Below are positions 7,565 through 31,083 of a stretch of DNA of 64,000 bases, in pieces. The stretch spans positions 24,374-88,373 of the forward strand of contig JBBRWS010000003.1 in the NCBI GenBank assembly GCA_038249055.1, given 5' to 3'. Position 1 is the first letter of the stretch. Each line of letters starts with the position of its first letter. Position numbers and translations under genes: made by a program. A model generated the notes under the pieces. The model had not been told where the DNA came from. It saw only the letters and a program-made list of their open reading frames with translations, and ran no database searches. This DNA comes from Minisyncoccia bacterium. GTDB taxonomy: Bacteria; Patescibacteriota; Minisyncoccia; Phycocordibacterales; UBA9973.

Positions 7565-7676
7565 TCTGTAGTAAAAATAGCATTACTTACTATTTAAATT
7601 TATCATACTAATTTATTGACCTTTATTTAGTATAAATAATATATATTATTTATACTAAAGTACATAATTTATTAAT

Positions 7677-8051: not shown

Positions 8052-8062
8052 ATTTATTTAAA

Positions 8063-9556
8063 TTAGGTAATAATAAGTCCTATAATACCAAGAATAGTCA
8101 AATAAATAAGACAAGGAATAATAACTCCTTTTAAGATACTCACTTCAGCGTTTTTTGTTCCTGTAACAGCTTCAGCAGTTAAAATATCTGCAAGTGCTAT
8201 CATATTACCTGCAGCAGCCCCAACAACACCTAGAGACAAAATAACACTTGTATTGAGGGCTAAGTTAGTTGACGCTATATTAAATAAATGACCAAACATA
8301 ATATTTGAAACAGTAACACTTCCTGTCATAAAGGCTCCAAAAGCTCCAATAAAAGGTGTAAAAAAAGGAAGCATTAACGATTCAAAACTATGAGTGATAA
8401 GACTTATAGCTGATAATAACCCGGAGCTATTATTACCTGAATTTATCATTATTTGAACCATAGCTAGCATAGAAAAAACAACAAAAAATGGATAAATTGC
8501 CCCACTAAAAGCTTTTTTTATTGAACTAATAAAAACCTTTTCTTTTTCTCTCCAAATTATAATTACCAATAATCCAGAAATTAAAAAAATAAAACCAGCA
8601 TTATATAAATTAAAAGTATGATTAAATCCTAAAGATATCAATATTCCCATCTTGCCCAAAAAAATTTTTCCTAAAATTAATAACGAAACAAGAATAGCAT
8701 ATGGTAAAAAAGATTTAAAAGCTGACATTGTTGATACTTCTTCTTTTTCTTCAACTAAAGATAATTTCTCTTTAGGAATTAAAAATCCAAGTTTAATTGA
8801 GATAACAACTATTATTAACCCCGCAATAGAACCTAAAATTGACGGAAATTCTTGCCCTAGTGAGACAAATAAAACTGAAGGAACCACAAAAATTAAACCT
8901 GAAAATATTGCAAAAGGTAAAGCATCTAAAAATTCTTTTTTTCTATTTTGTCTACCTTCTGTAATTATCCACAACATAAAAATAGGAACGATAAAGCCAA
9001 CAATATTAAGTAGAGAAGCTATTAAAGGAACTGATGTGACGTTTAATCCAGCAAAACCAATCTTTATTGGTGTTCCTGCTGCTCCAAAAACCCCGGGAAC
9101 ACTATTACCAAGAAGGCCCACAACTAAAGCCTTAATTGGTGGTAATCCTAAACCTATCAAAATAGGAACAGTTATTGCAGCTGGAATTCCAAAACCAGCT
9201 GTTCCCTCAAGAAAACATTCAAAGAACCACGCAATAACAATTATTTGTACTCTGTAGTCTTTAGAAAGGCCACCTAAATAATATGAAATATTTTTAATAA
9301 CTTTAAAATCCTTTAATATTTCAAGAAAGAAGATTGCCCCGAAAATTATAATAAAAATATCAATCGCAACAAAAAATCCTTTTCCATATGATATATACAG
9401 GAAAGAAGGAATTATTTTCCAGTAAAAAACAGCAAGAACTGTATACAAAGAAAGAGTAATAACTGATGACCAGAGTAGAGTTGTCTTTTTAATTAGTAAT
9501 AAATAAAGAAAAACTAAAAATGGAAACGCCGACAATAAAATTGGTATGCTATTCAT
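8063..9556 (-). CDS. Polytopic permease, L-lactate permease (LctP)-like
   Basis: 497 aa, about 12-14 TM helices, G-rich motifs (GFGIPAAITVPILIGLGLPP) reminiscent of LctP family; family assignment tentative. Confidence 0.5.
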   Translation of the reverse strand: MNSIPILLSAFPFLVFLYLLLIKKTTLLWSSVITLSLYTVLAVFYWKIIPSFLYISYGKGFFVAIDIFIIIFGAIFFLEILKDFKVIKNISYYLGGLSKDYRVQIIVIAWFFECFLEGTAGFGIPAAITVPILIGLGLPPIKALVVGLLGNSVPGVFGAAGTPIKIGFAGLNVTSVPLIASLLNIVGFIVPIFMLWIITEGRQNRKKEFLDALPFAIFSGLIFVVPSVLFVSLGQEFPSILGSIAGLIIVVISIKLGFLIPKEKLSLVEEKEEVSTMSAFKSFLPYAILVSLLILGKIFLGKMGILISLGFNHTFNLYNAGFIFLISGLLVIIIWREKEKVFISSIKKAFSGAIYPFFVVFSMLAMVQIMINSGNNSSGLLSAISLITHSFESLMLPFFTPFIGAFGAFMTGSVTVSNIMFGHLFNIASTNLALNTSVILSLGVVGAAAGNMIALADILTAEAVTGTKNAEVSILKGVIIPCLIYLTILGIIGLIIT

Positions 9557-9605
9557 AGTAATATAATATCATAAAAAATATACTTTTAAAACATTAAATA
9601 AATAA

Positions 9606-9650
9606 ATCAAAACCCAATTAATATAAATTAATTGGGTTTTGATTTATTAT
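9606..9650. terminator. Long hairpin terminator between permease and FN3 surface protein genes
   Basis: ATCAAAACCCAATTAAT-ataa-ATTAATTGGGTTTTGAT then T-rich. Confidence 0.6.
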
Positions 9651-9662
9651 TAATTTTATAAA

Positions 9663-12600
9663 TTAATTTTGAGTTTGGCTATTTTTTTTTGTAATTACTC
9701 CAATTAAAATTATAATTGATAAAATTAGCAATAAAACAGAAGCTCCAGCCAAATAAAGACTTATGCCATCCATTAAACCTGGTTTTGCTACATTTATTGA
9801 GGCTTCAGCAATAGGAAGATCCTGAAAGGTTACAGCTTCAGCTGTTTTAGTAAATAAATACCCAGAACTTTTAGCTATAATATTACCGGTATTATTTACT
9901 GTTGCGGTGTAAACTGTATGATTACCATTCTCTAGTTCTTTATCTAATAAATACTCCCATTCACCATTATTATCTGCCTTAATAGTCACAATAATAGGGG
10001 TACTATAAATATACAAAGTAATGAAACTGTTTGGTAATGCTTGCCCTTTAATTATTATTTCTTTTTGTTCAGTTAATTTAACATCTTTTACCTTATAAGT
10101 AGGAACAACTGGAGCTTCAGATACTTCAGGCTGTTCTATTTCTACTTTAACTAACTCTGGGCTTTTAGGATTATAACCTAATAATATTTTTTCGGAGGCA
10201 TTAATACTTCTTCCTTCATAAGAAGATACGGGAGAAGGTTTTATTGGGTCAATATTATAAACATAGGTTGAATCATAGTCAGAAATTCCATCATTGTTTG
10301 TATCTTTATAAAGAAGGTCTCCCCCTTGTTCCTTTAATACTCCTGATTTATCTTCTACCGCAACAGTTAATAAATTGAATGCTTCATTAATATTTTCTGA
10401 GTTAACTTTATCTATTTGAGAAACAACACCTCCACCTCCTGCCATTCCTCTAAGATTTTCTATACCTTTATTGATTTCAATTTTTAAATTACTAATATCT
10501 TCCGGTGTAACAAGAGCTAAATTTAATAAACTCATTTCAACTTTATTTATAAGTTCATCTCTATATAAATAAACCTTTAATATATCAATTGTTAAATTAT
10601 TTTCCTTTATAATTTTAATTACATTTAAAGTACTACCGTTAATTATATTAATTAATTGCTCTTTTGTATTAACTATGGAGTTTCTAAGTTCGTCTACAGC
10701 AAAACTAATATCTTGAATATTTGTAATAATTTCATTTGTTGTCTCTGGTAATATAACTTTGGATATTTCATTTTGAATGAGTTTAATCGGATTTTCAATT
10801 ATTTCCTTTTGCTCTATTAGTGAAACTAAAGGCGTTGTTATGATATTGTCTTTATTTTCTTCAATATTCAATGCTGGAATAGATATTGTTTTTAAATCAG
10901 TAAAACCAGAACAAGTTATTGATGATGTTGTGGTTGTTTGTTTATAGCAGGCTTTAACGCGATAATAATAAGGTACTCCACGAGTAACATTAAAATCAGA
11001 GAACGAAGTAGCGTTTGAATTTGCAGAATAAATAACAACCGTAGATTTTGAATCAGAACTAAGTCTTCGTTCTATTATAAAATTTGTTTCATTATTTGAA
11101 TTATCTTCCCAATTAATTTTAATAGAAGGTGTAGTATTAGTAGATGTATTGTTTAATACTAAATTGGTTGGATCAGATATTTGTATAATATTTGTTACAG
11201 GAAGTGGAATTGTAATTTTTTCTAAATCTGCGTAATTAGAACAAACAGTTTTTATTGTTTCTGTTATTGTTCCTGTTGGTGGCGTGTAGCAAGCTTTAAC
11301 ACGATAATCATAAGACACTCCTGGCTTCGCATCATAATCAGTGAAATAATTTACATCTTTGTTTGTATTACCATAAGCAGTTGCGGAATATGTTGTTTCG
11401 CTATTTAATTTTCGCTCAACTGTAAACTCAGTTTCATTATCAGAAAGATCTTCCCATTTAAGTGATATAGATTTTGAGAGAGAATCTAAAGCTGAATATA
11501 ATTTCAAATTAGCTGGTGATGCAACTGCAACAATATTCGGAATAACAACCGGAATCGAAATTCCTTTTAATTCTGTATATCCTGAATAAATTGAGTAAAT
11601 ATTTCCTGATGTTGTTCCTGATGTTGGAGTATAACTAGCCTTTACCCTATAATCGTACGAAATTCCAGCTCTGGCATCATTATCAGTAAAGTAATTAACA
11701 TCTTTATCTGTACTACCATAAGCAGTAGCCGAATATGTTGTTTCGTTGCTTAATTTTCTTTCTATAATAAATTTAGTTTCATTATTGGAATTATCAATCC
11801 ATTTAAGTGGTATAGATTTTGAGAGAGAATCTAAAGTTGAATATAATTTTAAACCTGTGGGGGCGCTTACTGCTGTAACGTTTGGCGTTGTGGATGGAAT
11901 AGAAGTTCCTCTTAATTCAGTATACGCGGAACAAATTTTAGATGTGGTTCCTACTGTTGTAACCGCAGTTGAAGTATAGCAAGCCTTTACTTTATAATAA
12001 TAGGATGCTCCACGGGTAACCTCTAAATCAGTATATGAGGTTTCATTTGAATTTAAATAATAAGAGTTAATGGCTTTCGCACCGTCTATACTTGATGTTC
12101 TATCAATAACAAATTCAGTTTCATTATTAGAATAATCCTCCCATTTAAGTCCAATTGATGCTACCGTGGCGGTAGAAGTATTTTCTACTACTAAATTTTT
12201 AGGAGCAGATACTGTAATATTATTTAGAGATGGAATTGAAATCATAGATACACTAGTAAAACCGGAACAAAGATTTGATGAATATCCTACGTGACAAGCC
12301 TTCACTCGATAGTAATAAGAAACTCCACGATAAACTTGAAAGTCAGTATAATTATTAATTCCTGCATTTGTATAATAAGAAGTTGCAGTTGATGTTAAAT
12401 CATCACTTATTCTTCGTTCTATAATAAATTGCGTTTCGTTATCAGAATTATCAACCCATTTGAGTTCAATTGATGCCTTGAGGGGTGTTGAAATATTATT
12501 CAATTCTAATCCACTTGGGTCTTTAGGAGTATATAAATTTATATTTTCTGTTGTATTTGTTGTATTTGTTGCATCTGTTGTATTTATTGTATCAGTTGTA

Positions 12601-13133
12601 TTTGAAGTTTTAATAATAGCACCTTCAAATTTAGCATAGTCTGAGCAAACTGTTTCTACTCCTGCTGAAGTTCCAGACGTTGAAGATATTGTTGGTGAAT
12701 TTAATGTTGAAGATATTAAATCTACCTTTTCTGTTAGACACGCTTTTATTTGATAGTCATAAGAAAATCCTGTTCTAACATATTGATCATTAAAAAAATG
12801 AAAATCTTTCCCAATAAAAGCATTTGTTATCGGAACAAAAACTGTGTCTGTACTTAATTTTTTTTCAAGAATAAAATGGGTTTCTGTATCAGAATTATCA
12901 TCCCAGGTTAAATATATTGAAGATGGAGTAGAAGCTGGACTTGTAGATTGTTGTAAGTTTGTTGGAGCAAAAGGTGCAATAGCTGCGTAAGACACACCCC
13001 AAAGAACAATAATTATTGTTAAAAAAAAGATAAAACCTAAAACTAAAATAAACTTATTGTTTCTAGAAAACGTGTTTAATTTTAACCTTTTCATTGTATT
13101 ATTATACACTTTTAAATTAATTTTTAATATCAA
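9663..13133 (-). CDS. Large membrane-anchored surface protein with about 7 tandem fibronectin type III-like modules and C-terminal coiled-coil plus TM anchor
   Basis: 1156 aa; N-terminal signal anchor; repeated ~110-aa units each with LKWxDNSxNETxFxIERK...SYxYRVKAC signature; C-terminal LYLAGASVLLLILSIIILIGVI anchor. Confidence 0.8.
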   Translation of the reverse strand: MILKINLKVYNNTMKRLKLNTFSRNNKFILVLGFIFFLTIIIVLWGVSYAAIAPFAPTNLQQSTSPASTPSSIYLTWDDNSDTETHFILEKKLSTDTVFVPITNAFIGKDFHFFNDQYVRTGFSYDYQIKACLTEKVDLISSTLNSPTISSTSGTSAGVETVCSDYAKFEGAIIKTSNTTDTINTTDATNTTNTTENINLYTPKDPSGLELNNISTPLKASIELKWVDNSDNETQFIIERRISDDLTSTATSYYTNAGINNYTDFQVYRGVSYYYRVKACHVGYSSNLCSGFTSVSMISIPSLNNITVSAPKNLVVENTSTATVASIGLKWEDYSNNETEFVIDRTSSIDGAKAINSYYLNSNETSYTDLEVTRGASYYYKVKACYTSTAVTTVGTTSKICSAYTELRGTSIPSTTPNVTAVSAPTGLKLYSTLDSLSKSIPLKWIDNSNNETKFIIERKLSNETTYSATAYGSTDKDVNYFTDNDARAGISYDYRVKASYTPTSGTTSGNIYSIYSGYTELKGISIPVVIPNIVAVASPANLKLYSALDSLSKSISLKWEDLSDNETEFTVERKLNSETTYSATAYGNTNKDVNYFTDYDAKPGVSYDYRVKACYTPPTGTITETIKTVCSNYADLEKITIPLPVTNIIQISDPTNLVLNNTSTNTTPSIKINWEDNSNNETNFIIERRLSSDSKSTVVIYSANSNATSFSDFNVTRGVPYYYRVKACYKQTTTTSSITCSGFTDLKTISIPALNIEENKDNIITTPLVSLIEQKEIIENPIKLIQNEISKVILPETTNEIITNIQDISFAVDELRNSIVNTKEQLINIINGSTLNVIKIIKENNLTIDILKVYLYRDELINKVEMSLLNLALVTPEDISNLKIEINKGIENLRGMAGGGGVVSQIDKVNSENINEAFNLLTVAVEDKSGVLKEQGGDLLYKDTNNDGISDYDSTYVYNIDPIKPSPVSSYEGRSINASEKILLGYNPKSPELVKVEIEQPEVSEAPVVPTYKVKDVKLTEQKEIIIKGQALPNSFITLYIYSTPIIVTIKADNNGEWEYLLDKELENGNHTVYTATVNNTGNIIAKSSGYLFTKTAEAVTFQDLPIAEASINVAKPGLMDGISLYLAGASVLLLILSIIILIGVITKKNSQTQN

Positions 13134-14519
13134 TTAACTAGCAACCGGGAAAGAAACTATAAAATGTGAACCTATACCTTTTATAGATTCTATTGATATA
13201 CTTCCACCCATTTGCTTCGTCATCTGAGCAGTTATCCAAAGCCCCAAACCTGTCCCCCTTATATTTTCAGTTTCTTTAGTTCTAATTCGATAAAACTTCT
13301 CAAATAATTTTATTCTTTCTTCCTCACTCATACCAATACCAGTATCACTAACTCTTATATAGAGACGATTATTTTCCATATATTGTCTTACAATAATATC
13401 TCCTTTATTAGTATATTTAATAGCATTTCCTACTAAATTTATTACAATTTGTTTCAATCTACTCACATCAACATTTATATTTTGATTTTCTTCTATCTTT
13501 GATTTATCAAAAGATATATTTAAATTTTTCTCTTTTGCGGGTAATAAAAAAGATGTTACTATTTGATCAATTATTTCACTTGGATTTATTTTTTCAATTT
13601 CAAACGACATTCTACCTTGTTCAATTCTAGAAACGTCCAAAATATCAGAAACTAATGAGTCTAACTCTTTTGCTGAGTAATCAATTTTTAATATATAATC
13701 TTTCGTTTGTGAAGATATTTCGGGTGCTTCACGAGCAAATTCTGCATAGCCACGAATTATAGATAGCGGTGTTCGTAATTCATGAGAAGCCATTGAAATA
13801 AAATCGTCTTTTAATTGATCAACTTCTTTTAATTTTTTATATAAATCCATATAATCAATTATTTTAGAGTGACGGAAAAATAAAAATAAAATTAAAATGA
13901 TAATAAAAAATAGTAAAATTCTACTGCTATTAATACTACTTCCAATGGCAATATCAGCCATTGATAACGACTGGGTGGTAATCACTGCTCCCAAAATATT
14001 TCCCTGTTGATCAGTAATCGCACGTGTTGTTTTAAATAATCTTTCTCCATTATCTGAAAGTTCTATTGTAACGGAATGGGATGGATCACTGGCGGCTATT
14101 GTAAATATAAAAGATGCTTGATCGTCGGCTAAATTAATTTCATCCTTATTATTTGAAGCAATAATTCTATAAGAAATAGAAACTTCATTAGTTTCAGAAT
14201 TTGTAATTACTTCCCTTTTTACAACTTTAAAGTTTTTTATAGTTTCGTTTGTATTAACAACATCTTGAATCTTTTTATTTAAATATTCTGGATCATCAAT
14301 TTTATCTGAAGCAAACGAAACAAAGGCATCTTGCAATGACCCAATTCGTACATTAATCAAACGCTCCTGTGCATCATTTGCTATATTTATAAATCTCTCA
14401 GCCATGAAAACAAAAGCACCAGTAATTAATACTGCCACTACAATCGTATATATTAATTGAGGATTATTGGTTACTTTTTTAACTCCCTTAATAAAATTTG
14501 AATATAAAAAACCAAACAT
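13134..14519 (-). CDS. Sensor histidine kinase (membrane, periplasmic sensor domain)
   Basis: MASHELRTPLS H-box, N/G boxes (GTGLGLWI), two TM segments. Confidence 0.85.
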   Translation of the reverse strand: MFGFLYSNFIKGVKKVTNNPQLIYTIVVAVLITGAFVFMAERFINIANDAQERLINVRIGSLQDAFVSFASDKIDDPEYLNKKIQDVVNTNETIKNFKVVKREVITNSETNEVSISYRIIASNNKDEINLADDQASFIFTIAASDPSHSVTIELSDNGERLFKTTRAITDQQGNILGAVITTQSLSMADIAIGSSINSSRILLFFIIILILFLFFRHSKIIDYMDLYKKLKEVDQLKDDFISMASHELRTPLSIIRGYAEFAREAPEISSQTKDYILKIDYSAKELDSLVSDILDVSRIEQGRMSFEIEKINPSEIIDQIVTSFLLPAKEKNLNISFDKSKIEENQNINVDVSRLKQIVINLVGNAIKYTNKGDIIVRQYMENNRLYIRVSDTGIGMSEEERIKLFEKFYRIRTKETENIRGTGLGLWITAQMTKQMGGSISIESIKGIGSHFIVSFPVAS

Positions 14520-14592
14520 GCTTAGATGATACCATTTTATAAATAAATAATCACCATATTATCTACTTAATTTGATATTATATTTTAAAATT

Positions 14593-15135
14593 TTAATGAC
14601 TTTTAAGCCAAGTTATCATTTTTTTAAATGTACCTGGTCCTGCTTCCCCATCAGCTGTTAAACCTTCTGCTTTTTGAAAACTTTTTACACCATTAAATGT
14701 ACTTAATCCGTAATCATTATCGACTTTATTTGAAGTATTGTTATATATATTTAAAAATTTCTGAACAGTACCAACGGCTGGACCTTGTGATTTATTTTTG
14801 AGATAAATATTTCCATCTACTAATTTTTGTAATTCATTTATCAGAGTCTGATTTTTTGAAACTACAGTTTTTGGTTGAATTGGATTTTCAACAACTGGTT
14901 CTGGAGTTACAACTGCTAAAACTTCCTGAACCTTCTCTGTTTCAAATTGACTGATTTCTTTTTTTAATTTTGCTACTTCTTTTACAAGTTCTTCATTTTT
15001 TTGTTCTAACTCTTTTTGTTTTTGATTATCAACATGAGTACTTCCTGATTCTATGGTAGAAAATGCCCAATACCCAGCAAAAGAAAGTGCGGCAATAATG
15101 AAAATCGAAGATAACATAAATTTAAAATTTTCCAT
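14593..15135 (-). CDS. Membrane-anchored coiled-coil protein with C-terminal peptidoglycan-binding (PG_binding_1-like) domain
   Basis: N-terminal TM, KE-rich coiled coil, C-terminal DNDYGLSTFNGVKSFQKAEGLTADGEAGPGT motif. Confidence 0.6.
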   Translation of the reverse strand: MENFKFMLSSIFIIAALSFAGYWAFSTIESGSTHVDNQKQKELEQKNEELVKEVAKLKKEISQFETEKVQEVLAVVTPEPVVENPIQPKTVVSKNQTLINELQKLVDGNIYLKNKSQGPAVGTVQKFLNIYNNTSNKVDNDYGLSTFNGVKSFQKAEGLTADGEAGPGTFKKMITWLKSH

Positions 15136-15198
15136 AATTTAATTATATCAGATAATAATATTCTTGTACTATTTTTAAAAGTTAATAAGTTAATTCTT

Positions 15199-17706
15199 TT
15201 ATGGTGCCTTAATAAAATATTTATAGAAAAAATATTTTGAAATTTCAGCAATTATAAGATAACTAACAACAATACCCGCTATAAGTAATAATAGAGGAAA
15301 AGGAAGTTTCGAAAATCCTAAAATAACCCCCAATGGAGTATAAGGAACTATCCAAGCAAAAATTACTACAGCAATAGTACTAAATGTAACAAAAATACCT
15401 GGAGTACTTCTAAAGAATGGTACACGTCTAGTTCTAATAATAAAGATAACTAATATTTGTGTGGCGATAGATTCAATAAACCATCCAGTTTGAAAATGTT
15501 GTTCATTTAAATTAAATACTTTATAAAGAACAAAGAATGTTAAGAAATCAAAGATGGAGCTAATAAGACCAAATACAATAATGTATTTAGAAAACTCTCT
15601 CATGTTCCACTTTAATGGATTTTTTACAGCTTCTATATCTGTTTTATCAGTTGGTATTGTAGTCTGAGAAACATCGTATAAAAAATTATTAAAAATTATT
15701 TGAGATGAAAGCATTGGGAAGAATGGTAAAAAAATAGATGCTCCCATCATTGAAAACATATTTCCAAAATTTGAGCTAAAACCCATTTTTATATACTTAA
15801 GAGTATTTTGAAATGTAGAACGCCCCTCTATTACCCCATCTTTTAGAACGTGTAAATTTTTATTTAAAAGAATTATATCTGCAGTTTCTTTTGCAACATC
15901 AACCGCATTATTGACCGATATCCCAACATCAGCAATTTTCAAAACTGGTGCATCGTTAATCCCATCTCCCATATATCCTACAGTATGATCATTTAATTGT
16001 AATAATCTTACAATTCGTTCTTTTTGAATAGGAGAAACTCTAGCAAAGATATTTGTTGAATCCAATTTTTGTGAAAGTTCTTCATCTGTTAGAGTATTCA
16101 ACATAGCTCCAGTAAGAGAACCTTTTATCTCTATATTCAAATCTTTACAAATACGTTCAGTAAGAATTTCACTATCCCCTGTAATAATTTTTACTTCAAC
16201 TGAAAGATTTTTTAATTCTTCTAGGGCTGAACTAGCACTTTTTTTAGGTGGATCCAGAAAAGCAGCATAACCTACAAAAGTCATATTTTCTTCCTCTTGG
16301 TTTTTATATTTAATTCTTTCATCTTTTTCTATTTTCTTTACAGCTACAGCAAGAACACGAAAACCATCAGCGCTTAATTTGTCGTATTCATTTTTAGCCT
16401 TTTCTTTAATTTCATTATCAAATATGGATATATTATTTCCATCCTCGAGCATATTAGAAATAGAAAAAATACTCTCTGGAGCTCCTTTGGTAATCATTAA
16501 TCTCTCTCCATTATGTTCAACTATGATTGAATCTCTTTTCCTCTCAAAATCAAAAGGGATTTCATCTATTTTTGTATACGAACTTGAGTCCATCTTTCCA
16601 CGAATTTGTATTGCTTCATCAAGAGGACTTTTGCGGGCAGTATGATATATACTATTTAAATATGAATATAGGAGAGTATTTTTTGAATCAACGTCAAAAA
16701 TATTTATACATTTTATAAGTTCAATTTTATCTTCAGTTAAGGTCCCCGTTTTATCTGTACAAAGTATATCCATACTTCCAAAATTTTGCACAGATGCTAA
16801 ATTTTTCAATATAACCTGCTTTTTTGCCATACGAAGAGATCCATGAGAAAGTGTAACTGTCATAATAACAGGGAGAAGCTCCGGTGTAAGTCCTACTGCT
16901 ATTGCAGCTGCAAATAAAAATGAATTCAATACTCCTCTATCATTAAAAGCATTTACTAAAAAAACAAAAATTACCATCACTAAAGTAAGTCGAACAATAA
17001 AAATACTAAAATTTTTAAGCCCTATTTCAAAACTAGTTTTTTGTTTAACAGCGGAAAGTCTATCTGCAATTTTACCAAATTCTGCCTGTGAACCAGTTTG
17101 AATAACTTGAGCTATAGCAAAACCTGTTACCACCGACGTACCCATAAACACAGCATCCGTATCAGTTAATTTTAGAGAAATACTTGTTAAAGAAATATTA
17201 TCTTCCATTACAAATTTCTCTACAGGAAATGACTCTCCAGTTAGTACTGATTGATTTACGAAAAAATCATCGGCAGATATAATAATACAGTCAGCAGGTA
17301 TAACATCTCCAGCTGAAAGTTCAATTATATCTCCCGGCACTAACCCATGAAAAGGTATTTCTTGTTTTACTCCGTCACGACGGACCGTTGCTGTTGAAGC
17401 TACTTTTTCTACCAATCGTTCAGCAACTTTTTCCGATTTATAACTATTAAAAAAGTCCAAGGAAACTGAAACAAAAATCATAACCAAAAGAATTATTGCA
17501 TTAACAGACTGTCCAAAAAAGAATGCAATAATAGCAGCTCCCATTAAAAGAAATAGAAGAGGATTATTAAACTTCTTAAGAAACATAACTACGGGTTGAA
17601 GTTTTTTTCGATGATAAATAGTATTTTCACCGAATTTTACTAAATATTTTTTTGCCTGAAAAGAAGTCAAACCATTGACTACATCAGTTCTTTTATTTTC
17701 TTGCAT
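15199..17706 (-). CDS. mgtA: Magnesium-translocating P-type ATPase (MgtA-like)
   Basis: DKTGTLT phosphorylation motif, GDGINDAPVLK, PELLPVIMTVTLSHGSLRMAKKQVILKNLASVQNFGSMDILCTDKTGTLT closely parallels MgtA. Confidence 0.8.
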   Translation of the reverse strand: MQENKRTDVVNGLTSFQAKKYLVKFGENTIYHRKKLQPVVMFLKKFNNPLLFLLMGAAIIAFFFGQSVNAIILLVMIFVSVSLDFFNSYKSEKVAERLVEKVASTATVRRDGVKQEIPFHGLVPGDIIELSAGDVIPADCIIISADDFFVNQSVLTGESFPVEKFVMEDNISLTSISLKLTDTDAVFMGTSVVTGFAIAQVIQTGSQAEFGKIADRLSAVKQKTSFEIGLKNFSIFIVRLTLVMVIFVFLVNAFNDRGVLNSFLFAAAIAVGLTPELLPVIMTVTLSHGSLRMAKKQVILKNLASVQNFGSMDILCTDKTGTLTEDKIELIKCINIFDVDSKNTLLYSYLNSIYHTARKSPLDEAIQIRGKMDSSSYTKIDEIPFDFERKRDSIIVEHNGERLMITKGAPESIFSISNMLEDGNNISIFDNEIKEKAKNEYDKLSADGFRVLAVAVKKIEKDERIKYKNQEEENMTFVGYAAFLDPPKKSASSALEELKNLSVEVKIITGDSEILTERICKDLNIEIKGSLTGAMLNTLTDEELSQKLDSTNIFARVSPIQKERIVRLLQLNDHTVGYMGDGINDAPVLKIADVGISVNNAVDVAKETADIILLNKNLHVLKDGVIEGRSTFQNTLKYIKMGFSSNFGNMFSMMGASIFLPFFPMLSSQIIFNNFLYDVSQTTIPTDKTDIEAVKNPLKWNMREFSKYIIVFGLISSIFDFLTFFVLYKVFNLNEQHFQTGWFIESIATQILVIFIIRTRRVPFFRSTPGIFVTFSTIAVVIFAWIVPYTPLGVILGFSKLPFPLLLLIAGIVVSYLIIAEISKYFFYKYFIKAP

Positions 17707-17747
17707 GTCATTTATTATATCATATTAACACTACAGAAAACCAAATA

Positions 17748-17786
17748 AAAAACACTTTGATTCAATATCAAAGTGTTTTTTATTTT
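17748..17786. terminator. Hairpin terminator downstream of helicase gene
   Basis: AACACTTTGAT-tcaat-ATCAAAGTGTT followed by TTTTTT. Confidence 0.6.
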
Positions 17787-17797
17787 TAGATTCAAAT

Positions 17798-19162
17798 TTA
17801 ATTTACGAACGTTAAAGCTACTCCAACTTGATTCGCACGGCCAGTACGGCCTATACGGTGAACATAGTCTTCATAAGTAGCAGGAATTTCATAATTAATA
17901 ACGTGGGTAACATTTGGGATATCCAGTCCTCGAGCAGCAACATCAGTTGCAACAAGTATTTGACTATGATTATCTCTAAATGCTTTCAATGCACTTTGGC
18001 GTCTTGATTGATTTTTATCTCCGTGAATTGATTCAGCTTTATACCCTCTTTGAACTAATGTTTGACAAAGTTTTTCAACTCCATGTTTTGTACGTCCAAA
18101 AATAAGAACTTTAGAAAACTCCTTTTTAGATAAAAGAGAATGCAATGAATCAATTTTATCAGAACCATGAGGTACACGAATAATATCTTGATCTACGTTT
18201 CTGGCTGTATCTCCAGTTTTAGTAGAAATCCTTTCAGGATTAGTTAAAAATTCTACAATTAATTTATCAATTTCTTTTGTTATTGTTGCAGAGAATAATA
18301 ATGTTTGACGATTTGGTGCCATATTAGCCATAATAAATCGCATGTCATTTACAAATCCCATGTCGAGCATTCTATCTGCTTCATCAAGAACTATTGTTCT
18401 GAATTCTGCTAGACGAATAACTCTACGGTCAACTAAATCTTTCAAACGTCCAGGAGTACCAATCACTATATTGTGATCTCTGCGTAATCCATAAATTTGA
18501 TTTGAAATACCCATTCCTCCAACACAACATACAGAGTAAATTCTAAGTGCTCCTCTAAATGCCATCAATTCTTCATTAATTTGTGTTGCTAATTCTCGAG
18601 TTGGTACAATTACCAAAACTTTTTCACGAGGATTATTCATAATTTTATCTAATAGTGGAATCAAAAACGCAGCTGTTTTACCAGTTCCTGTATTTGCTAT
18701 ACCAACAACATCACGTCCATTAAGTACAAATGGAATAGCGACGTCTTGAATAGGAGTCGGATTCACATAACCTTTTTGGGTAATGTTATTTTTTAATGTT
18801 GCATGAATTTTAAAATCAGCAAATTTATTTACTGGTATATATGGAGCTGACTCAACTATTGGGTCTGCTTTACATATAAAACGAGAATGGCTTATATTAC
18901 TATCTCCACCATAACGAGGCTTAGAAGATCTTCCACGGTTACCACCGCCACTTGAGCGACTATAACCACCACTAGAACGACCTCCGCTATTGCTACTATT
19001 TGAACGACTATAACCACCACTTGGGCGACTACTACCACTAGTTCCGCGACCAGTAGAAGAACTGCCACGATAACTGCTTCTTTGTCCACTAGAAGATGGA
19101 CGACTTGAACCACCCGAAGATGGCTGACCGGAGCTTCCGCCACGGCTATTTGGTTTATACAT
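17798..19162 (-). CDS. DEAD-box ATP-dependent RNA helicase with ~100-aa Gly/Ser/Arg-rich (RGG/SGG/YSRS) N-terminal low-complexity extension
   Basis: Q motif GYVNPTPIQ, Walker A TGTGKTAAF, DEAD (VLDEADRMLD), SAT, HRIGRTGRA; N-terminus SRGGSSGQPSSGGSSRPSSSGQRSS... Confidence 0.85.
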   Translation of the reverse strand: MYKPNSRGGSSGQPSSGGSSRPSSSGQRSSYRGSSSTGRGTSGSSRPSGGYSRSNSSNSGGRSSGGYSRSSGGGNRGRSSKPRYGGDSNISHSRFICKADPIVESAPYIPVNKFADFKIHATLKNNITQKGYVNPTPIQDVAIPFVLNGRDVVGIANTGTGKTAAFLIPLLDKIMNNPREKVLVIVPTRELATQINEELMAFRGALRIYSVCCVGGMGISNQIYGLRRDHNIVIGTPGRLKDLVDRRVIRLAEFRTIVLDEADRMLDMGFVNDMRFIMANMAPNRQTLLFSATITKEIDKLIVEFLTNPERISTKTGDTARNVDQDIIRVPHGSDKIDSLHSLLSKKEFSKVLIFGRTKHGVEKLCQTLVQRGYKAESIHGDKNQSRRQSALKAFRDNHSQILVATDVAARGLDIPNVTHVINYEIPATYEDYVHRIGRTGRANQVGVALTFVN

Positions 19163-19448
19163 ATTATTTTCCCCAGTCTATAATTATAAAAGTAAGACGG
19201 ACTAGGACCCTTATCCCTTAAGGTTTCCATAAAGACTTTCCATTTGGGATAAGGCGTTATATACAGGCGCTACATGCGCAAGAAAACCATTGAGACTACA
19301 ACTTACTTGACTAGTATATAACTAATAATTATATTTGTCAACCCCACACTTATACCTATATCATTATATACTGTAACCTCGGTTTGATTTCTAAGTCATT
19401 ACGATTTATAAACATAGAAATATAAATACATATGGTCACGAAATAAAT

Positions 19449-19472
19449 AAAACCCCATCTTTGGGGTTTTAT
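19449..19472. terminator. Bidirectional hairpin terminator
   Basis: AAAACCCCA-tctt-TGGGGTTTT. Confidence 0.6.
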
Positions 19473-19484
19473 TGTTATAAAAAA

Positions 19485-19625
19485 TTATTTAGTTTTTTTA
19501 CTAATAGACTTTTTTTTGTCAGTTTTATTATCAAGCATAACTTTTTTGACAGCAAGTCTTTTTGCTGTCTTTTTTGAATGCTTTGATTTTATATGAGGAT
19601 GAAGTGAAGTAGCTCTTTTTGCCAT
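19485..19625 (-). CDS. Tiny Lys/Arg-rich basic protein (46 aa), function unknown
   Basis: ATG..TAA frame giving MAKRATSLHPHIKSKHSKKTAKRLAVKKVMLDNKTDKKKSISKKTK; sits between two terminators; below ORF-track size cutoff. Confidence 0.3.
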   Translation of the reverse strand: MAKRATSLHPHIKSKHSKKTAKRLAVKKVMLDNKTDKKKSISKKTK

Positions 19626-19715
19626 ATATATGAAATTGATTAATTAATAAGATATTCTGCATTATACATTAAATGAATAAAAAATCCAATTAATTTAGAT
19701 TAAAAAAAATAAAAT

Positions 19716-19760
19716 ACTCCACATGAGCCAAATGGCAAATGTGGAGTATTTTACTAAAAG
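19716..19760 (-). terminator. Terminator of cold-shock protein gene
   Basis: ATACTCCACAT..ATGTGGAGTAT hairpin followed (minus sense) by T-run. Confidence 0.6.
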
Positions 19761-19770
19761 CTACGCGATA

Positions 19771-19968
19771 TTATGCACGTGATACTTTTGTTGCAGCTGG
19801 TCCTTTTTCAGTGTCAACTAGTTCAAAAGTGACTGTGTCACCTGTTTGAAGTTCGTCAAATGTAACACCAACTAGTTCCTTAGAATGAAAGAAAAGGTCT
19901 TTAGCTTCGCCTTCGCGAGAGATAAATCCAAATCCTTTATCTGTAAGAGTCTTGATTGTTCCTGTCAT
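19771..19968 (-). CDS. csp: Cold-shock protein (CspA family)
   Basis: MTGTIKTLTDKGFGFISREGEAKDLFFH... RNP1/RNP2 motifs. Confidence 0.9.
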   Translation of the reverse strand: MTGTIKTLTDKGFGFISREGEAKDLFFHSKELVGVTFDELQTGDTVTFELVDTEKGPAATKVSRA

Positions 19969-20120
19969 ATGATTTTTTTGATTATTTTTGATTGAAACTT
20001 CGACGTGGTTTCTAGTGCCTTAACACAATTACAGTATAACACACTTTTTAAATAAATACATGTATTAACAACAAAGGATAATTTAATATAAAAATACTTA
20101 TATTTTATAATATAAACTAT

Positions 20121-20390
20121 TTATTTTTTAACCTCCATAAATCTCCTCCATTCATCTGCTACATCTGGTGATAATCTATCTAATTCTGTTAATATTATAT
20201 TTCTAATTTCAGACGATAAAATTTTATCTTTCTCTTCTACAAAATCTATTACCTTACTAGAAACTTCATTTACAATTTTATTTATTTCTTCTGGTTCCAA
20301 CTTTGCATCTTGTGCTGCTCTTGTTATTGATCTTATAATTTTTTTAGTATCAAATGGCATTTTTGTACCATTACTTTTTATAACTTGCAT
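20121..20390 (-). CDS. Stand-alone ATP-cone domain protein
   Basis: MQVIKSNGTKMPFDTKKIIRSITRA... matches ATP-cone (NrdR/NrdD N-terminal regulatory domain) pattern; no zinc ribbon. Confidence 0.6.
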   Translation of the reverse strand: MQVIKSNGTKMPFDTKKIIRSITRAAQDAKLEPEEINKIVNEVSSKVIDFVEEKDKILSSEIRNIILTELDRLSPDVADEWRRFMEVKK

Positions 20391-20718
20391 ATATACAAAA
20401 TTATTTAATTAATATTTATATAAGTTATAATCATAACGACTAATAATGATTATGACAATATATTTGAATAATCAAAAAAACCGAAACCAATAATTGGTTA
20501 CGGGTCTCTAGGACCTCTAGTTCTTTACTATTCACATTATATAATAATACTTAATTTACACAACAAGTTATTCACAATAAATAAATTATGAACATAACAT
20601 GATAATTATTTATGTTAAAATTAATATCAACGCCATGAAAAATAATTTAATTATAATTTTAATAATTTTATTTATAATACTAATAGGTATAGTAGTATTA
20701 TAAATAAAAAATAATAAT

Positions 20719-21174
20719 ATGAATGATAAAAATAAATTAGAGATAATAAGTGATTCTTTTAAAAATAATCAATATATACCATTAAAATATAGCTGTAATG
20801 GAGATAACATAAATCCCCCACTTTCTATACTCAACATTCCAAAAGAAACAAAATCAATGGCTCTAATTGTTGATGATCCCGATGCTCCTAGTGGAAATTG
20901 GGTTCACTGGATTCTATGGAATATATCTCCCATAACTTCAAAAATTGAAGAAAATATAATACCCATGAATTCCGTTCAAGGTTTAAATGATTCAAACAAT
21001 AACAAATATGATGGTCCATGTCCTCCGTCCGGAACACATAGATATTTTTTCAAATTATATGCCTTAGATTTTACTCTTAATTTAAATAAAGGTAGCAGAA
21101 AAAGTGATTTAGAAAATGCGATAAAAGGACACATTCTTGCTCAAGCAGAACTGATTGGATTATATTCTAAATAA
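20719..21174 (+). CDS. YbhB/YbcL family PEBP (Raf kinase inhibitor-like) protein
   Basis: DDPDAPSGNWVHW and HRYFFKLYALD motifs. Confidence 0.8.
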   Translation: MNDKNKLEIISDSFKNNQYIPLKYSCNGDNINPPLSILNIPKETKSMALIVDDPDAPSGNWVHWILWNISPITSKIEENIIPMNSVQGLNDSNNNKYDGPCPPSGTHRYFFKLYALDFTLNLNKGSRKSDLENAIKGHILAQAELIGLYSK

Positions 21175-27296: not shown

Positions 27297-27340
27297 AAAA
27301 AAAATAAACCGTGATTCCAAACAAATGGAAACACGGTTTA
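27297..27340 (-). terminator. Terminator of FG-GAP paralog 1
   Basis: AAACCGTG...CACGGTTT hairpin, T-run in minus sense; homologous copy at 28890-28934. Confidence 0.6.
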
Positions 27341-27356
27341 CTGATTATATTAAAGG

Positions 27357-28718
27357 CTATTTTTTTATAACCTTAAGAGTTTTTCCTGAGACATTTACAA
27401 AATATATTCCAGGTTTATGAGGCAGACCAATAACTGTTTTACCAGCGTTGCATTGTGTTTTTTGTATGACCCTAGAAGTGGAGTCTATAATAGTTAACAT
27501 TTCACCTTCCTTGGTATTTTCAATGTTTAAAATATCAATACAAGGATTGGGAAAAATTTTTAATTCAGAATTATTAATTTGATTAACCGCGGTATGAATA
27601 TCACCAGTGGTATTAATCAGAACTGATAAACCTGTATAACTATTAACAGAAACAATATCTGGTTTCCCATCATTATTTACGTCCGCGACCACAATTCCAT
27701 CTGGATCATTATTATTAGGTGAATTTGTATTAAATACAGTGACAACCTTATTAATAACTACCTGTACACGACCACTTGATATCATGACAATATCATCATA
27801 GCCGTCAGAATTAAGATCACCAACGGAAAGTGCCCCGGGGTTAACCTGATTATCAATATCAAAAGAGATATCAGAGTTAGCTCCCCATACACCAATTTTT
27901 CCAGTAACTGAATAAACTAATTCCTTTCTATTATCTGAACTAATATTTCCAACTACAATTGAAGATGGATTATTTTTATCCGGAATAATGTTTAGATTGG
28001 TCAACATTTCAATGCTTCTATCTTTTCTAAATTTATAAACAGAAACATAATTAAAACCGCCTTGACCATTCATTTTTATTACCGAATTAAAACTATCAGA
28101 CCCGAGCTTTGCAATCTCAATATCATCATACCCTGATTGTGTCGAGGGATAATAATAAGGTAAGGATAGACAACCGATACTATCACAATAATATGCAACA
28201 ATATTGGGTTGATTCCATAGAGAAACTACAATGTCATTTATTCCGTCATCGTTAATATCGCCAATTTTTACAGCATCTACTGTTTTCCCGGCATAAATAT
28301 TAATAGGATGTCCTAATTTACCAACAGTATTTTGATGATAAATAATAATCTCATCACCAGCACCTAATACAACATCACTAAGTCCATCATTATTAATATC
28401 GCCTGAGCTTATAGTGCTCACATCATATTTTTGATAATAAGGATAAACAGCTGATAGCTGTAGGGTATTGCTTGAATCCTGAAGATAAATAAATAATTTA
28501 AAATTAGTATTTACACTTGGATTACTAGCATAAGAACCGGTCGCAACAGCGACGTCTATCTTACCATCGTTATTAAAATCACCTGCCGTCAGGTGATCAG
28601 CTAATGTTCCATTTATGGGATAATTTTTTACCCCTGAAAATGTAACTTGCCCGCAAGCAATGTTACCGATAGAAAGAATACCAAATACAACAACTAGAGT
28701 AATCAGAATTTGTTTCAT
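27357..28718 (-). CDS. Secreted FG-GAP/VCBS-repeat beta-propeller protein with C-terminal T9SS-type (Por secretion tail-like) sorting domain, paralog 1
   Basis: Signal peptide; repeated DxNxDGxxD(I/V)V motifs (DFNNDGKIDVAV, DINNDGLSDVV, DINDDGINDIV...); C-terminus KIFPNPCIDILNIEN...IIDSTSRVI...GIYFVNVSGKTLKVIKK. Confidence 0.7.
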   Translation of the reverse strand: MKQILITLVVVFGILSIGNIACGQVTFSGVKNYPINGTLADHLTAGDFNNDGKIDVAVATGSYASNPSVNTNFKLFIYLQDSSNTLQLSAVYPYYQKYDVSTISSGDINNDGLSDVVLGAGDEIIIYHQNTVGKLGHPINIYAGKTVDAVKIGDINDDGINDIVVSLWNQPNIVAYYCDSIGCLSLPYYYPSTQSGYDDIEIAKLGSDSFNSVIKMNGQGGFNYVSVYKFRKDRSIEMLTNLNIIPDKNNPSSIVVGNISSDNRKELVYSVTGKIGVWGANSDISFDIDNQVNPGALSVGDLNSDGYDDIVMISSGRVQVVINKVVTVFNTNSPNNNDPDGIVVADVNNDGKPDIVSVNSYTGLSVLINTTGDIHTAVNQINNSELKIFPNPCIDILNIENTKEGEMLTIIDSTSRVIQKTQCNAGKTVIGLPHKPGIYFVNVSGKTLKVIKK

Positions 28719-28734
28719 AATTTTTATTATTAAT

Positions 28735-28880
28735 TTTTAGTTTATATTTATTTGAATTACTTTAAATTTCATATAGAAATACAAAGTAATTCAAATAAAT
28801 TACTGTCTAAAAATTATTTTATCAAAGAGCTAAGACTAACTTATATAGTAGCATAAATATAGAGATTTGTCAATCTATAT
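28735..28880 (-). promoter_or_regulatory. Conserved promoter + 5' leader hairpin module, copy B
   Basis: Minus-sense TTGACA-N17-TACTAT then TTTGAATTACTTT...AAAGTAATTCAAA hairpin ~33 nt before ATG. Confidence 0.5.
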
Positions 28881-28889
28881 TCTAATTTC

Positions 28890-28934
28890 ATAAAAAAATA
28901 AACCGTTATTCCAAGCAAATGGGATAACGGTTTA
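28890..28934 (-). terminator. Terminator of FG-GAP paralog 2
   Basis: AAACCGTTAT...ATAACGGTTT hairpin. Confidence 0.6.
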
Positions 28935-28952
28935 TCAAATAAATTTTCAAAG

Positions 28953-30335
28953 CTAATTCTTTACAACTTTGAATGTTTTACCCGATATATTTACAAAATA
29001 AATTCCAGGATAAAAACCTTCCATACTAACGACTGTTTTATCGTAATCAGTTTTAATCTTCTTTATTACTCTGGAAGTTGAGTCATAAATAGTCAAGATA
29101 TCCTTTCCGTTTGTATTATTAATGTTTACAATATTTTTACAAGGGTTAGGAAATACATTAAGCTCAGTGTCATTAATTTGATTTGTACCTGTAATAATAG
29201 TGGTATTGAGCATAATTGTTAAACCTGTATTACCATTACATGAAACAATGTCTAGTTTCCCATCACTATTTACATCCGTAATAGCTATCCCATCAGGTGA
29301 ATTAATATCTGGTGAATTCGTTGAGAATTTATATATCACCTTATTAACAATCACTTGCACAAAATTATTACTAATCATTACAATTTCATCGATTCCGTCG
29401 GAGTTTAAGTCTCCAGCAGCCAAGGCCCCACTATTATATGGAGTCTGTAAATCAAATGATATTTCAGGAGATGCTCCCCATACATTTATCATTCCATTTA
29501 CTGAATAAATAAGTTCATTCCTTTTGTCGGAAGTAACATTACCCATAACAATAGAGACGGGCATATTATTAACACTATTTGAAATGAGATCTAAATTGGT
29601 TTCAGTATTCAGACTTCTGTCTTTATTAAAATGATAAACAGTAAAAGATAATCTTCCTTTACTGTAGAGTCCTCCTTGACCATACATTTTAATTACAGAA
29701 TTAAAATTATCATCTCCAAGTCGAGCAATCTCAATATCACCATACAATGATGCTCCTGAAAAATACCAAACTGGATAAGCTAATTTGCCCATACTGTCAC
29801 CATAAAAGGCGGCAATGTTTGACTGTCTCCGAAGAGTAATAATGATATCGTTTATTCCATCATCATTTATGTCCCCAATTTTTAGAGCATCAGGTATTGC
29901 ACCACAATAGGTATAAACTGGTGAATTAAATTTACCGTTTACATTTTGGTAAAAAATACCAATTTCTGCTTCTACGGCAATGACAATATCACAGAGACCA
30001 TCATTATTCACGTCACCTGCACCTATTGCCCCCACGCCGTCGGTAGCATGACCATAAGTATAACTATCTGAAAGAATCAAACTGTTGTTCTTATCTTGTA
30101 GGTATACCATTACTTTATAGTTAGTATTGAGACCAGAATCAGTCGTATACGAACTTGTTGCTACAGCAACGTCCTTTTTACCATCATTATTAAAATCACC
30201 TGTTGTAAGGTGATTTGCTAATGTTCCCAAAATTGGGAAATTAGTAAAGGGAGAAAATGTAACTTGCCCGCAAGCGATGTTACTAAACAAAATAAAACCA
30301 AACACAACAAAAAAATTCACTACTAAATTTTTCAT
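28953..30335 (-). CDS. Secreted FG-GAP/VCBS-repeat protein with T9SS-type C-terminal domain, paralog 2
   Basis: Same architecture as 27357-28718, tandem paralog; C-terminus LNVFPNPCKNIVNINN...IYDSTSRVI...GIYFVNISGKTFKVVKN. Confidence 0.7.
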   Translation of the reverse strand: MKNLVVNFFVVFGFILFSNIACGQVTFSPFTNFPILGTLANHLTTGDFNNDGKKDVAVATSSYTTDSGLNTNYKVMVYLQDKNNSLILSDSYTYGHATDGVGAIGAGDVNNDGLCDIVIAVEAEIGIFYQNVNGKFNSPVYTYCGAIPDALKIGDINDDGINDIIITLRRQSNIAAFYGDSMGKLAYPVWYFSGASLYGDIEIARLGDDNFNSVIKMYGQGGLYSKGRLSFTVYHFNKDRSLNTETNLDLISNSVNNMPVSIVMGNVTSDKRNELIYSVNGMINVWGASPEISFDLQTPYNSGALAAGDLNSDGIDEIVMISNNFVQVIVNKVIYKFSTNSPDINSPDGIAITDVNSDGKLDIVSCNGNTGLTIMLNTTIITGTNQINDTELNVFPNPCKNIVNINNTNGKDILTIYDSTSRVIKKIKTDYDKTVVSMEGFYPGIYFVNISGKTFKVVKN

Positions 30336-30349: not shown

Positions 30350-30490
30350 AATGGTTAGATTATTTGAATTACTTTAAATTCCATATAGAAATACAAAGTA
30401 ATTCAAATAAGTCACGACTTAAAAAAACTTTATCAAAGAACTGATACTGCCTAATAGTCTGACATAAATGCATGGCTTTGTCAATTTACA
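30350..30490 (-). promoter_or_regulatory. Conserved promoter + 5' leader hairpin module, copy C
   Basis: Minus-sense TTGACA then TTTGAATTACTTT...AAAGTAATTCAAA hairpin ~28 nt before ATG. Confidence 0.5.
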
Positions 30491-30606: not shown

Positions 30607-31083
30607 ATGAAAAAATTCTATATAATTATCATCGTGGTGGCCTTGGGTTATGGTGGATACTGGTATATCAATCACCAATCAGAAACAAAAGATTTTATAA
30701 ATAATGTTATCGACACAAAAAATAATGTCGTAAACAAAACTAATGCGGAAATTGATTCACTTATAAAAAGTGCCGTGAGCGGAGTTAACACAATCAGCCC
30801 ATTATATTATCTTCAAAATAGAAATTATGGAATATCAGCAACTGAAAACATTTGTTTAAATACTGAATCAAAAGGTAGTATAGGTGGCGTTATTTCTGGT
30901 ATCCAAAAACTCACAAAGGCAGTTACTTGCACAGTTGATCCAGACTTCCCTTCAAAGAGCTTTACTCTTATTGCTCCGTCATTAATAGATAAGGAAATAT
31001 CTTACTGTACAGACCAGTCAGGATTTTCTGTAATTAATACGGTATCAATGAATACATTTAAGGCGGGATTTAAATGTAAATAA
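30607..31083 (+). CDS. Hypothetical secreted/membrane-anchored protein
   Basis: 158 aa, N-terminal hydrophobic segment, 6 Cys. Confidence 0.5.
   Translation: MKKFYIIIIVVALGYGGYWYINHQSETKDFINNVIDTKNNVVNKTNAEIDSLIKSAVSGVNTISPLYYLQNRNYGISATENICLNTESKGSIGGVISGIQKLTKAVTCTVDPDFPSKSFTLIAPSLIDKEISYCTDQSGFSVINTVSMNTFKAGFKCK

Follow-up and report, generated by a model that had tools for sequence, protein, structure and literature searches.

Type-A C-terminal domains (CTDs) are treated as markers of type IX secretion system (T9SS) cargo and are used for counting that cargo. Such cargo is expected to share its genome with the machinery (SprA/Sov, PorV, PorU, PorK/L/M/N) and an outer membrane, and its CTD to be cut off by PorU as the cargo is linked to A-LPS or released. 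Genes of the T9SS have been reported only from phyla of the Fibrobacteres-Chlorobi-Bacteroidetes (FCB) group (PMC11285876, PMC11205867), and the CTD is known as a compact Ig-like seven-strand beta-sandwich (PMC11285876). Patescibacteria (the candidate phyla radiation, CPR) have been proposed to lack an outer membrane (PMC12102498), and in literature searches we found no paper on the T9SS or its CTDs in this group. Here we describe two adjacent genes, A and B, in a stretch of 64,000 nucleotides (the window) from contig JBBRWS010000003.1 of a Minisyncoccia bacterium (GCA_038249055.1), each of which encodes an FG-GAP propeller protein ending in a T9SS-type CTD. Sequence and fold place A and B in families that are already known (FG-GAP propeller, type-A T9SS CTD); it is their host that is unusual. 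On balance, we think it probable that they are Bacteroidota-type T9SS cargo genes acquired by Paceibacteria, in which the CTD has been kept for a surface role independent of the T9SS.

The closest described counterparts are the T9SS type A FG-GAP/VCBS proteins of Bacteroidota, such as WP_279196080.1 of C. indoltheticum (in the cluster of P0016) and P0004, encoded on the Saprospiraceae-like contig L003. These are of the same size (~455-470 aa), can be aligned with A and B end to end (at 26% and 38% identity, respectively) and share with them the signal peptide with Gln at +1, the propeller and the PF18962/TIGR04183 CTD. A and B differ in that their CPR host has no visible T9SS or outer membrane, in a Ser that replaces a conserved loop Gly of the CTD, and in being isolated CTD carriers rather than members of a large set. 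Precomputed Pfam tables already assign PF18962 to these proteins, so the domain assignment itself is not new.

Domain composition of A and B

The two genes lie head to tail on the minus strand (Table 1) and their products align over the full length at about 56-57% identity. Both proteins match FG-GAP_3 (PF13517; E 1.9e-25 for A and 6.8e-23 for B) and FG-GAP (PF01839; E 1.1e-19 and 9.7e-16), and each contains five DxNxDGxxD loops. An AlphaFold2 (AF2) model of A, made with a 31-sequence alignment (pLDDT 87.7, pTM 0.79), begins with a helix (residues 2-17), continues with a beta-propeller (~31-367) and, after a linker of low confidence (375-383), ends in a C-terminal domain of seven strands (387-452). 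When the whole model was compared with Foldseek, seven-bladed FG-GAP propellers (BBSome subunits, ITFG2, integrin alpha, CRTAC1) were retrieved with E-values down to 4e-13. The propellers of A and B are thus predicted to be seven-bladed and of the FG-GAP type, with putative Ca2+-binding DxNxDGxxD loops. Integrin-alpha-type propellers (integrin alpha, ITFG2 of KICSTOR, BBS1/2/7/9, CRTAC1) likewise have seven blades and DxNxDGxxD Ca2+ loops, but A and B are just 8-14% identical to them and the eukaryotic partner domains are missing; the match is at the level of the fold only and is uninformative on the ligand.

By inspection and in the model, a hydrophobic helix (residues 2-17) at the N-terminus of both proteins is followed by A-C-G and then Q. 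The predicted signal peptide of A spans residues 1-23 and ends in NIACG, with the cut before Q. This Gln at +1 is nearly invariant across the family and corresponds to the Bacteroidetes 'Q-rule' (PMC5837995). The initial annotation had described two adjacent FG-GAP proteins with signal peptides and DxNxDGxxD repeats, a description that the open reading frames (ORFs), the hidden Markov models (HMMs) and the five loops in each protein bear out.

The same annotation had proposed a T9SS-type domain at the C-terminus, and here too the HMM check was positive. Both proteins score above the curated cut-offs of PF18962 (Por_Secre_tail; 28.8 bits for A and 33.4 bits for B, gathering score 27) and of TIGR04183 (31.3 and 29.0 bits, cut-off 23). 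The matches reach the end of the protein (388-453 of 453 in A, 394-458 or 394-460 of 460 in B) and cover the models almost end to end. We modelled residues 380-453 of A with AF2 and obtained seven strands with a pLDDT of 93. The best match in the PDB was the NucA CTD in the F. johnsoniae T9SS translocon (8glk_D; TM 0.72, rmsd 2.9 Å, 33% identity), followed among the top matches by the CTD of RgpB (7pq4, 5ag8, 5hfs), PorU (6za2) and PorZ (5m11). The small size of the domain keeps the Foldseek E-values modest (3.8e-3 and weaker). Since the top matches are solved T9SS CTDs, the fold comparison agrees with the profile matches, and A and B carry a genuine T9SS type-A CTD.

Like the solved T9SS CTDs (NucA, RgpB, PorU, PorZ), those of A and B form a seven-strand Ig-like beta-sandwich with Lys in the last strand. 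The motifs PNP and GxY and the last-strand Lys are retained in A, B and the ortholog on contig L004 (described below), whose C-terminal ends read LKVIKK, FKVVKN and FKIIKK, respectively. At the columns of A K449 and K452, in the Lys-bearing motif of the last strand ('motif C-t.'), Lys is present in 23/28 and 20/28 aligned CTDs. The KLIKK peptidases of T. forsythia, with a CTD ending in K-L-I-K-K (PMC11285876), have nearly the same C-terminal strand motif as A, B and L004; they come from another organism, their passenger is a peptidase rather than a propeller, and the likeness is confined to the end motif.

Two features set A and B apart from the solved CTDs. The loop between the last two strands is shorter by ~5 residues in A, B and the L004 ortholog, a deletion shared by P0004. 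In addition, three of the 28 aligned CTDs, those of A (Ser415, window 27474-27476), B (residue 422) and the L004 ortholog, have Ser where the other 25 have the beta3-beta4 loop Gly with which strand beta4 begins. In RgpB of P. gingivalis this Gly ('motif Lbeta3beta4') is required for T9SS secretion and its replacement by Arg blocks secretion (PMC11285876). The Gly-to-Ser change in the CPR proteins would be compatible with release from T9SS recognition. It is not decisive, since the feature is not universal: T. forsythia mirolase is without this Gly and yet is secreted by its own T9SS (PMC11285876).

Genomic setting and likely origin

The genome that carries A and B belongs to the CPR, within Paceibacteria. 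The best 120 of thousands of relatives of the window's histidyl-tRNA synthetase (HisRS) are 84-93% identical, and all those with names, at 85-93%, are Candidatus Pacebacteria, Paceibacterota, Nomurabacteria or 'Patescibacteria group'. Compared with the syntenic contig L004, IMPDH is 96%, Maf 87% and the DEAD helicase 97% identical. The CPR-like gene content noted in the initial annotation is thus upheld by the HisRS relatives and by conserved CPR synteny.

Apart from three, every window ORF of at least 100 aa that lies outside a longer ORF was included in our Pfam scans. The scans returned translation and housekeeping domains, peptidoglycan-related domains (Amidase_3, VanW, YkuD, PG_binding), two-component kinases and a type I restriction system. 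No outer-membrane, lipopolysaccharide or T9SS domain was found in these ORFs, in agreement with the earlier remark that the window holds no T9SS components. With an HMM built from the CTDs of the family, no other CTD-bearing ORF was found in the 64-kb window, and none on ~210 kb of contigs from close relatives besides the ortholog of the L086/L004 lineage. With no other CTD in ~275 kb of clade DNA, the domain is not a general tag but travels with this gene; a general CPR sorting tag was rejected on the same count.

A single ortholog of A and B, 47-49% identical, was found on the ENA contig L004 and the JGI contig L086, where the gene order is PRT-IMPDH-p158-FGGAP-Maf-BrkB-MFS. On a Logan contig, A again adjoins the amidase gene. 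Because the same synteny is seen in independent assemblies, the gene is not an assembly artefact, and an assembly chimera or mis-binning was rejected. The p158 product (158 aa; 30607-31083, plus strand) has a membrane helix at its N-terminus and matches no Pfam family. In both lineages with the FG-GAP gene it is encoded divergently from the latter, and it is 79% identical between them. It was also located on L004 (9089-9565), L086 (7440-7913) and L089 (410-874); on L089 it adjoins IMPDH, and the contig ends ~400 bp beyond it.

The distribution of the gene is patchy. A metagenome scan with the window IMPDH returned 24 loci (72-96% identity), nine of which keep at least 5 kb on both sides. The FG-GAP gene was present near IMPDH in one of these nine (L086, of the L004 lineage) and missing in the other eight. 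A 38% identical homolog, P0006, lies on a contig whose YkuD is 67% identical to that of the window, which points to another genome of Paceibacteria type, in which the gene occupies a different locus. Since no integrase or transposase was found near A or B, we dismissed a prophage or mobile-element setting in the window.

The 38% identical P0004 is encoded on a contig of a different character (L003; GCA_964486185.1, CAZALD010000019.1). In the region 2002-20757 its gene closes an uninterrupted run of five that encode TIGR04183 proteins, a subtilisin among them, within 10 kb. The five genes directly adjoin an IS3 transposase, a tyrosine integrase, a relaxase and a NikA-like gene, so that a likely donor-type gene sits beside a mobilisable element. 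Homologs of the integrase are 59-80% identical, and the named ones are all Saprospiraceae, Bacteroidia or Bacteroidota. Against plasmids, the relaxase gave four weak, uninformative matches only and the integrase only 25% matches. More distant CTD-bearing homologs with names are also from Bacteroidota, e.g. Chryseobacterium. When a genome collection was scanned with generic FG-GAP peptide patterns from a 4-sequence alignment, the matches listed were 20-32% relatives from Acidobacteriota, Planctomycetota and others.

In a neighbour-joining (NJ) tree of 31 sequences (451 columns, 200 bootstraps), A and B group together (74%) and are joined by the L004 ortholog (100%) and then by L125 (85%) in a Paceibacteria clade, with P0004 as its sister (82%). 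A and B have the same GC content as their neighbours (0.33), so a transfer would have been old enough for amelioration.

These observations bear on a more ordinary explanation, that the contig comes from, or is chimeric with, a T9SS-bearing FCB bacterium in which the CTD is a normal export signal. In its favour, the proteins truly match T9SS CTDs in both HMM and fold, and the genome scan was limited to the 64-kb window. Against it, HisRS, IMPDH and other flanking genes are 72-96% identical to proteins from Paceibacteria metagenome-assembled genomes, the same locus occurs in three independent assemblies, and the GC matches that of the neighbours. Moreover, this is the sole CTD family in the ~275 kb of clade DNA, compared with five CTD proteins in 10 kb on L003, and the Pfam scans showed no outer-membrane or T9SS domain in the window. 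We regard this explanation as largely refuted and extremely improbable.

A second CPR case was found on contig L005 (GCA_964458335.1, CAYWIJ010000002.1, 1-13228), where the gene at 10001-11362 encodes P0009, a 27% identical homolog with a PF18962 CTD. Ten of eleven neighbouring genes contain in-frame TGA codons (1-17 each). Their positions mostly align with Gly in solved M29 aminopeptidases, and one falls in the L-P-G-V-G helix-hairpin-helix motif of a glycosylase. L005 thus reads UGA as Gly (genetic code 25), which is the code of Gracilibacteria and Absconditabacteria. The FG-GAP-CTD gene itself uses TGA for none of its 40 Gly codons, compared with 26% in the neighbours (P about 6e-6). In the NJ tree it groups with P0096 (94%), whose contig holds another CTD protein, outside the Paceibacteria clade. 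The simplest reading is that the L005 gene is a separate, fairly recent import from a standard-code organism.

Horizontal acquisition of the A/B gene from Bacteroidota is well supported, given the patchy distribution, the Saprospiraceae-like sister among T9SS cargo genes and the separate code-25 homolog. Horizontal transfer had been offered as an alternative in the initial annotation, and it gains from the P0004 sister, the relatives of the L003 integrase and the NJ tree. A precedent is the patescibacterial type IV secretion system, proposed to derive from monoderm bacteria (PMC12102498), in which envelope and secretion genes were gained by Patescibacteria through horizontal transfer and repurposed. 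There, however, a whole monoderm-compatible machinery was acquired, whereas A and B represent only the cargo of a diderm-specific system. Bona fide type-A CTD proteins are encoded in the chromosomes of at least three CPR lineages, were acquired at least twice and are kept under purifying selection.

Selection, expression signals and duplication

We compared the rates of change of the two domains among A, B and the L004 ortholog. Identity amounts to 54-57% in the CTD and 49-58% in the propeller, and dN/dS comes to ~0.2-0.3 for either domain, a ratio that is approximate because dS is near saturation. The CTD is therefore under purifying selection in the CPR, which suggests that it is kept for some T9SS-independent role. 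At the same time the proteins change rapidly, with a dN of 0.39-0.42 relative to the L004 ortholog; the seven flanking genes compared have 0.02-0.21. Such fast evolution is typical of proteins exposed to other cells.

A and B might instead be neutral leftovers of a transfer, with the CTD being lost. Their faster change than every flanking gene compared and the loss of the T9SS-critical Gly fit such decay, as does the lack of the gene in eight of the nine relatives whose IMPDH flanks were usable. The three ORFs are nevertheless intact after a dS above 1, with the low dN/dS given above in both domains, and the models are confident (pLDDT 88 and 93). The CTD is conserved as well as the propeller, and all three copies retain the promoter, the leader (49-50/51 nt) and the terminator, in which a compensatory change is seen. 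Decay is accordingly very unlikely.

A and B each come with a separate promoter, leader, coding sequence and terminator (Table 1), so the whole transcription unit was duplicated. The leader palindromes of A and B differ at one of 51 positions and have no third copy in the window (0 chance matches expected), and the terminators are 81% identical. A duplication that includes promoter, leader hairpin and terminator, as first annotated, is thus borne out. Its extent is larger than had been given, since the leader and promoter of B (~30360-30484) fall beyond the end set at 30335.

Table 1. Genes A and B and their associated elements (positions in the window).
Feature	Coordinates	Strand	Description
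Intrinsic terminator of A	27298..27351	-	Hairpin 27304-27340, then T-run; inverted and direct repeat; fold -23.6 kcal/mol, z -7.6
Gene A	27357..28718	-	453 aa; signal peptide 1-23, propeller ~31-367, linker 375-383, type-A CTD 387-453
CTD of A (residues 387-453)	27360..27560	-	Seven-strand beta-sandwich, end LKVIKK; PF18962, TIGR04183, AF2 and PDB matches
Leader palindrome/hairpin of A	28748..28798	-	51 nt, between promoter and start codon; fold -29.8 kcal/mol, z -8.3
Promoter of A, sigma-70-like	28845..28873	-	TTGACA-17-TACTAT, TG-extended; from consensus scan
Intrinsic terminator of B	28892..28945	-	Hairpin 28898-28935, then T-run; inverted and direct repeat; fold z -6.0
Gene B	28953..30335	-	460 aa; architecture as gene A; CTD 394-460 at 28956-29156
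Leader palindrome/hairpin of B	30360..30410	-	51 nt; fold z -6.5
Promoter-like site of B	30456..30484	-	TTGACA-17-CAGACT, weaker -10; assigned by homology to the A promoter

The duplication had also been called recent, which does not hold. The paralogs are closer to each other (57% identity) than to the ortholog (49-51%), and they are grouped by the NJ tree. Their dS is ~1.3 (dN 0.32), which is at least as large as the dS of 0.46-1.12 found for seven flanking genes between this genome and L004. It is selection, rather than a young age of the copies, that makes promoter, leader and terminator look fresh; the L004/L086 ortholog carries the same elements.

The leader RNA forms a hairpin of ~23 bp (-27 to -30 kcal/mol), and its palindrome is identical at 49-50 of 51 nt across A, B and the L004/L086 ortholog (L004 9812-9854; L086 7151-7193). 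Both arms are conserved in sequence while the proteins are 47-57% identical with dS above 1, a pattern suggestive of an operator bound by a protein, or of an RNA element whose partner recognises a specific sequence. The -35 hexamer and the surroundings of the -10 of the A promoter are conserved in B and in L004/L086. The consensus scan did not detect the promoter-like site of B, which is known from the alignment with the upstream regions of A and L004. The terminator is conserved in A, B and the L004 ortholog, its stem showing a compensatory change from G-C to U-A between A and B and a G-U wobble in L004. Rfam searches with the leader and terminator gave only chance-level matches and no family, and an Rfam scan of L003, L004, L005 and L086 gave no match.

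Elsewhere in the window, which has a GC of ~29%, about 50 of about 60 non-nested ORFs of at least 100 aa are on the minus strand. The cumulative GC skew falls across the window with no reversal, so it probably lies inside one replichore. A 1156-aa protein (9663-14519, minus strand) that has no CTD and only a weak sub-threshold Big_13 Ig-like match (24 bits) is encoded directly upstream of an adjoining histidine kinase, and may be another large surface protein of this CPR genome. A defence-like cluster at 53570-63956 comprises a type I restriction R subunit (59744-62875), an N6_Mtase-domain protein (62883-63956), an HNH_2 endonuclease protein (55270-56391), a DUF4238 protein (53570-54568) and several small ORFs with no Pfam match. 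Directly downstream of the type I restriction genes, between ORFs of 174 and 113 aa, there is a match to the LOOT RNA motif (RF03000; 59184-59320, minus strand; 62.4 bits, gathering 46.4).

Possible roles of the retained domain

We propose the following course of events. A T9SS cargo gene comprising a Sec signal peptide, a Ca2+-binding FG-GAP propeller and a type-A CTD would have entered a Paceibacteria lineage by horizontal transfer and come to lie between the 158-aa gene and maf. Later, in this genome, it would have been duplicated as a complete transcription unit of promoter, leader hairpin, coding sequence and terminator. The products are presumably exported by Sec and processed by signal peptidase I. 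The lack of T9SS domains in the window, the proposed lack of an outer membrane and the restriction of the T9SS to FCB phyla together mean that the CTD cannot be an outer-membrane export signal here. There would thus be no T9SS step, and the CTD, uncleaved, would most likely stay on the mature protein as a folded Ig-like beta-sandwich. It could then serve as a stalk, or as a module for anchoring or binding, that presents the propeller; the latter is most likely a Ca2+-dependent adhesin or ligand binder at the cell surface. The fast evolution of A and B fits a role at the interface with other cells.

The proteins could also be held at the N-terminus. In A, B and the L004 ortholog the predicted cleavage site is preceded by a Cys (N-[IV]-A-C-G-Q) that the other homologs, with A-x-[AG] before the Gln, do not have at that position. 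If this Cys were part of a lipobox, a lipid anchor would tether the N-terminus to the cytoplasmic membrane and leave the CTD distal and free. The usual lipobox (PROSITE PS51257) has [LVI] at -3, to which the Asn found here is a poor fit, and the family-wide A-x-[AG]-Q pattern agrees with signal peptidase I cutting right before the conserved Gln. We consider such an anchor unlikely, though it is compatible with a T9SS-independent surface role of the CTD.

Another explanation turns to a host cell. An epibiont might use the CTD to dock onto, or be captured by, a Bacteroidota host whose own T9SS surface machinery (the PorV shuttle or the attachment complex) recognises the domain. Such mimicry would account for purifying selection on a CTD in an organism that is expected to be without a T9SS and for the retention of PNP, GxY and the C-terminal K-x-x-K. 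The position of the sister gene on a Saprospiraceae-like Bacteroidota contig and the independent acquisition of such genes by at least two CPR lineages point the same way. The support is circumstantial throughout and the lineage has no known host. We know of no described case in which a CTD is recognised from outside the cell; in known systems PorV meets CTDs that leave the cell's own translocon. Furthermore, the loop Gly that is needed for secretion of RgpB is Ser in A, B and the L004 ortholog, the only three of 28 CTDs with this change, and CTDs are poorly interchangeable even among species of Bacteroidota (PMC11285876). Host-directed mimicry therefore seems improbable to us. We give the same low weight to its broader form, that orphan CTDs are host-interaction modules and that epibiotic Patescibacteria repeatedly capture cargo genes of Bacteroidota, displaying a host-type CTD with an adhesive propeller in order to engage PorV or the attachment complex.

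Several points weigh against our preferred interpretation, a T9SS-independent surface role of the acquired proteins. The absence of a T9SS beyond the 64-kb window rests on phylum-level literature. The direction of transfer is inferred from distribution and context, with a small NJ tree of 31 sequences and moderate support (74-85%), and the omega values are only approximate with dS near saturation. Export, the fate of the CTD and localisation rest on inference, and the conserved Cys leaves a lipoprotein-type anchor possible. Finally, the residues of T9SS recognition (PNP, GxY, the last-strand Lys) have been kept, which could mean that recognition by a partner persists rather than that the role is purely structural.

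For annotation, these proteins indicate that a match to TIGR04183 or PF18962 alone does not imply a T9SS and that the CTD is an unsafe proxy for it. A UGA-free gene among UGA-rich neighbours, as on L005, offers a clean internal marker of recent transfer, and the near-invariant 51-nt leader hairpin represents an uncharacterised cis-element. If orphan CTDs were indeed host-interaction modules, CTD proteins in CPR genomes would predict the phylum of the host, here a Saprospiraceae-like member of the Bacteroidota. For the family, our results suggest that the CTD fold can be maintained for a purpose independent of the T9SS. For the organism, they suggest that genes of surface proteins flow from Bacteroidota to the CPR, which gives a lead to the gene-exchange partner, possibly the host, of these Paceibacteria.

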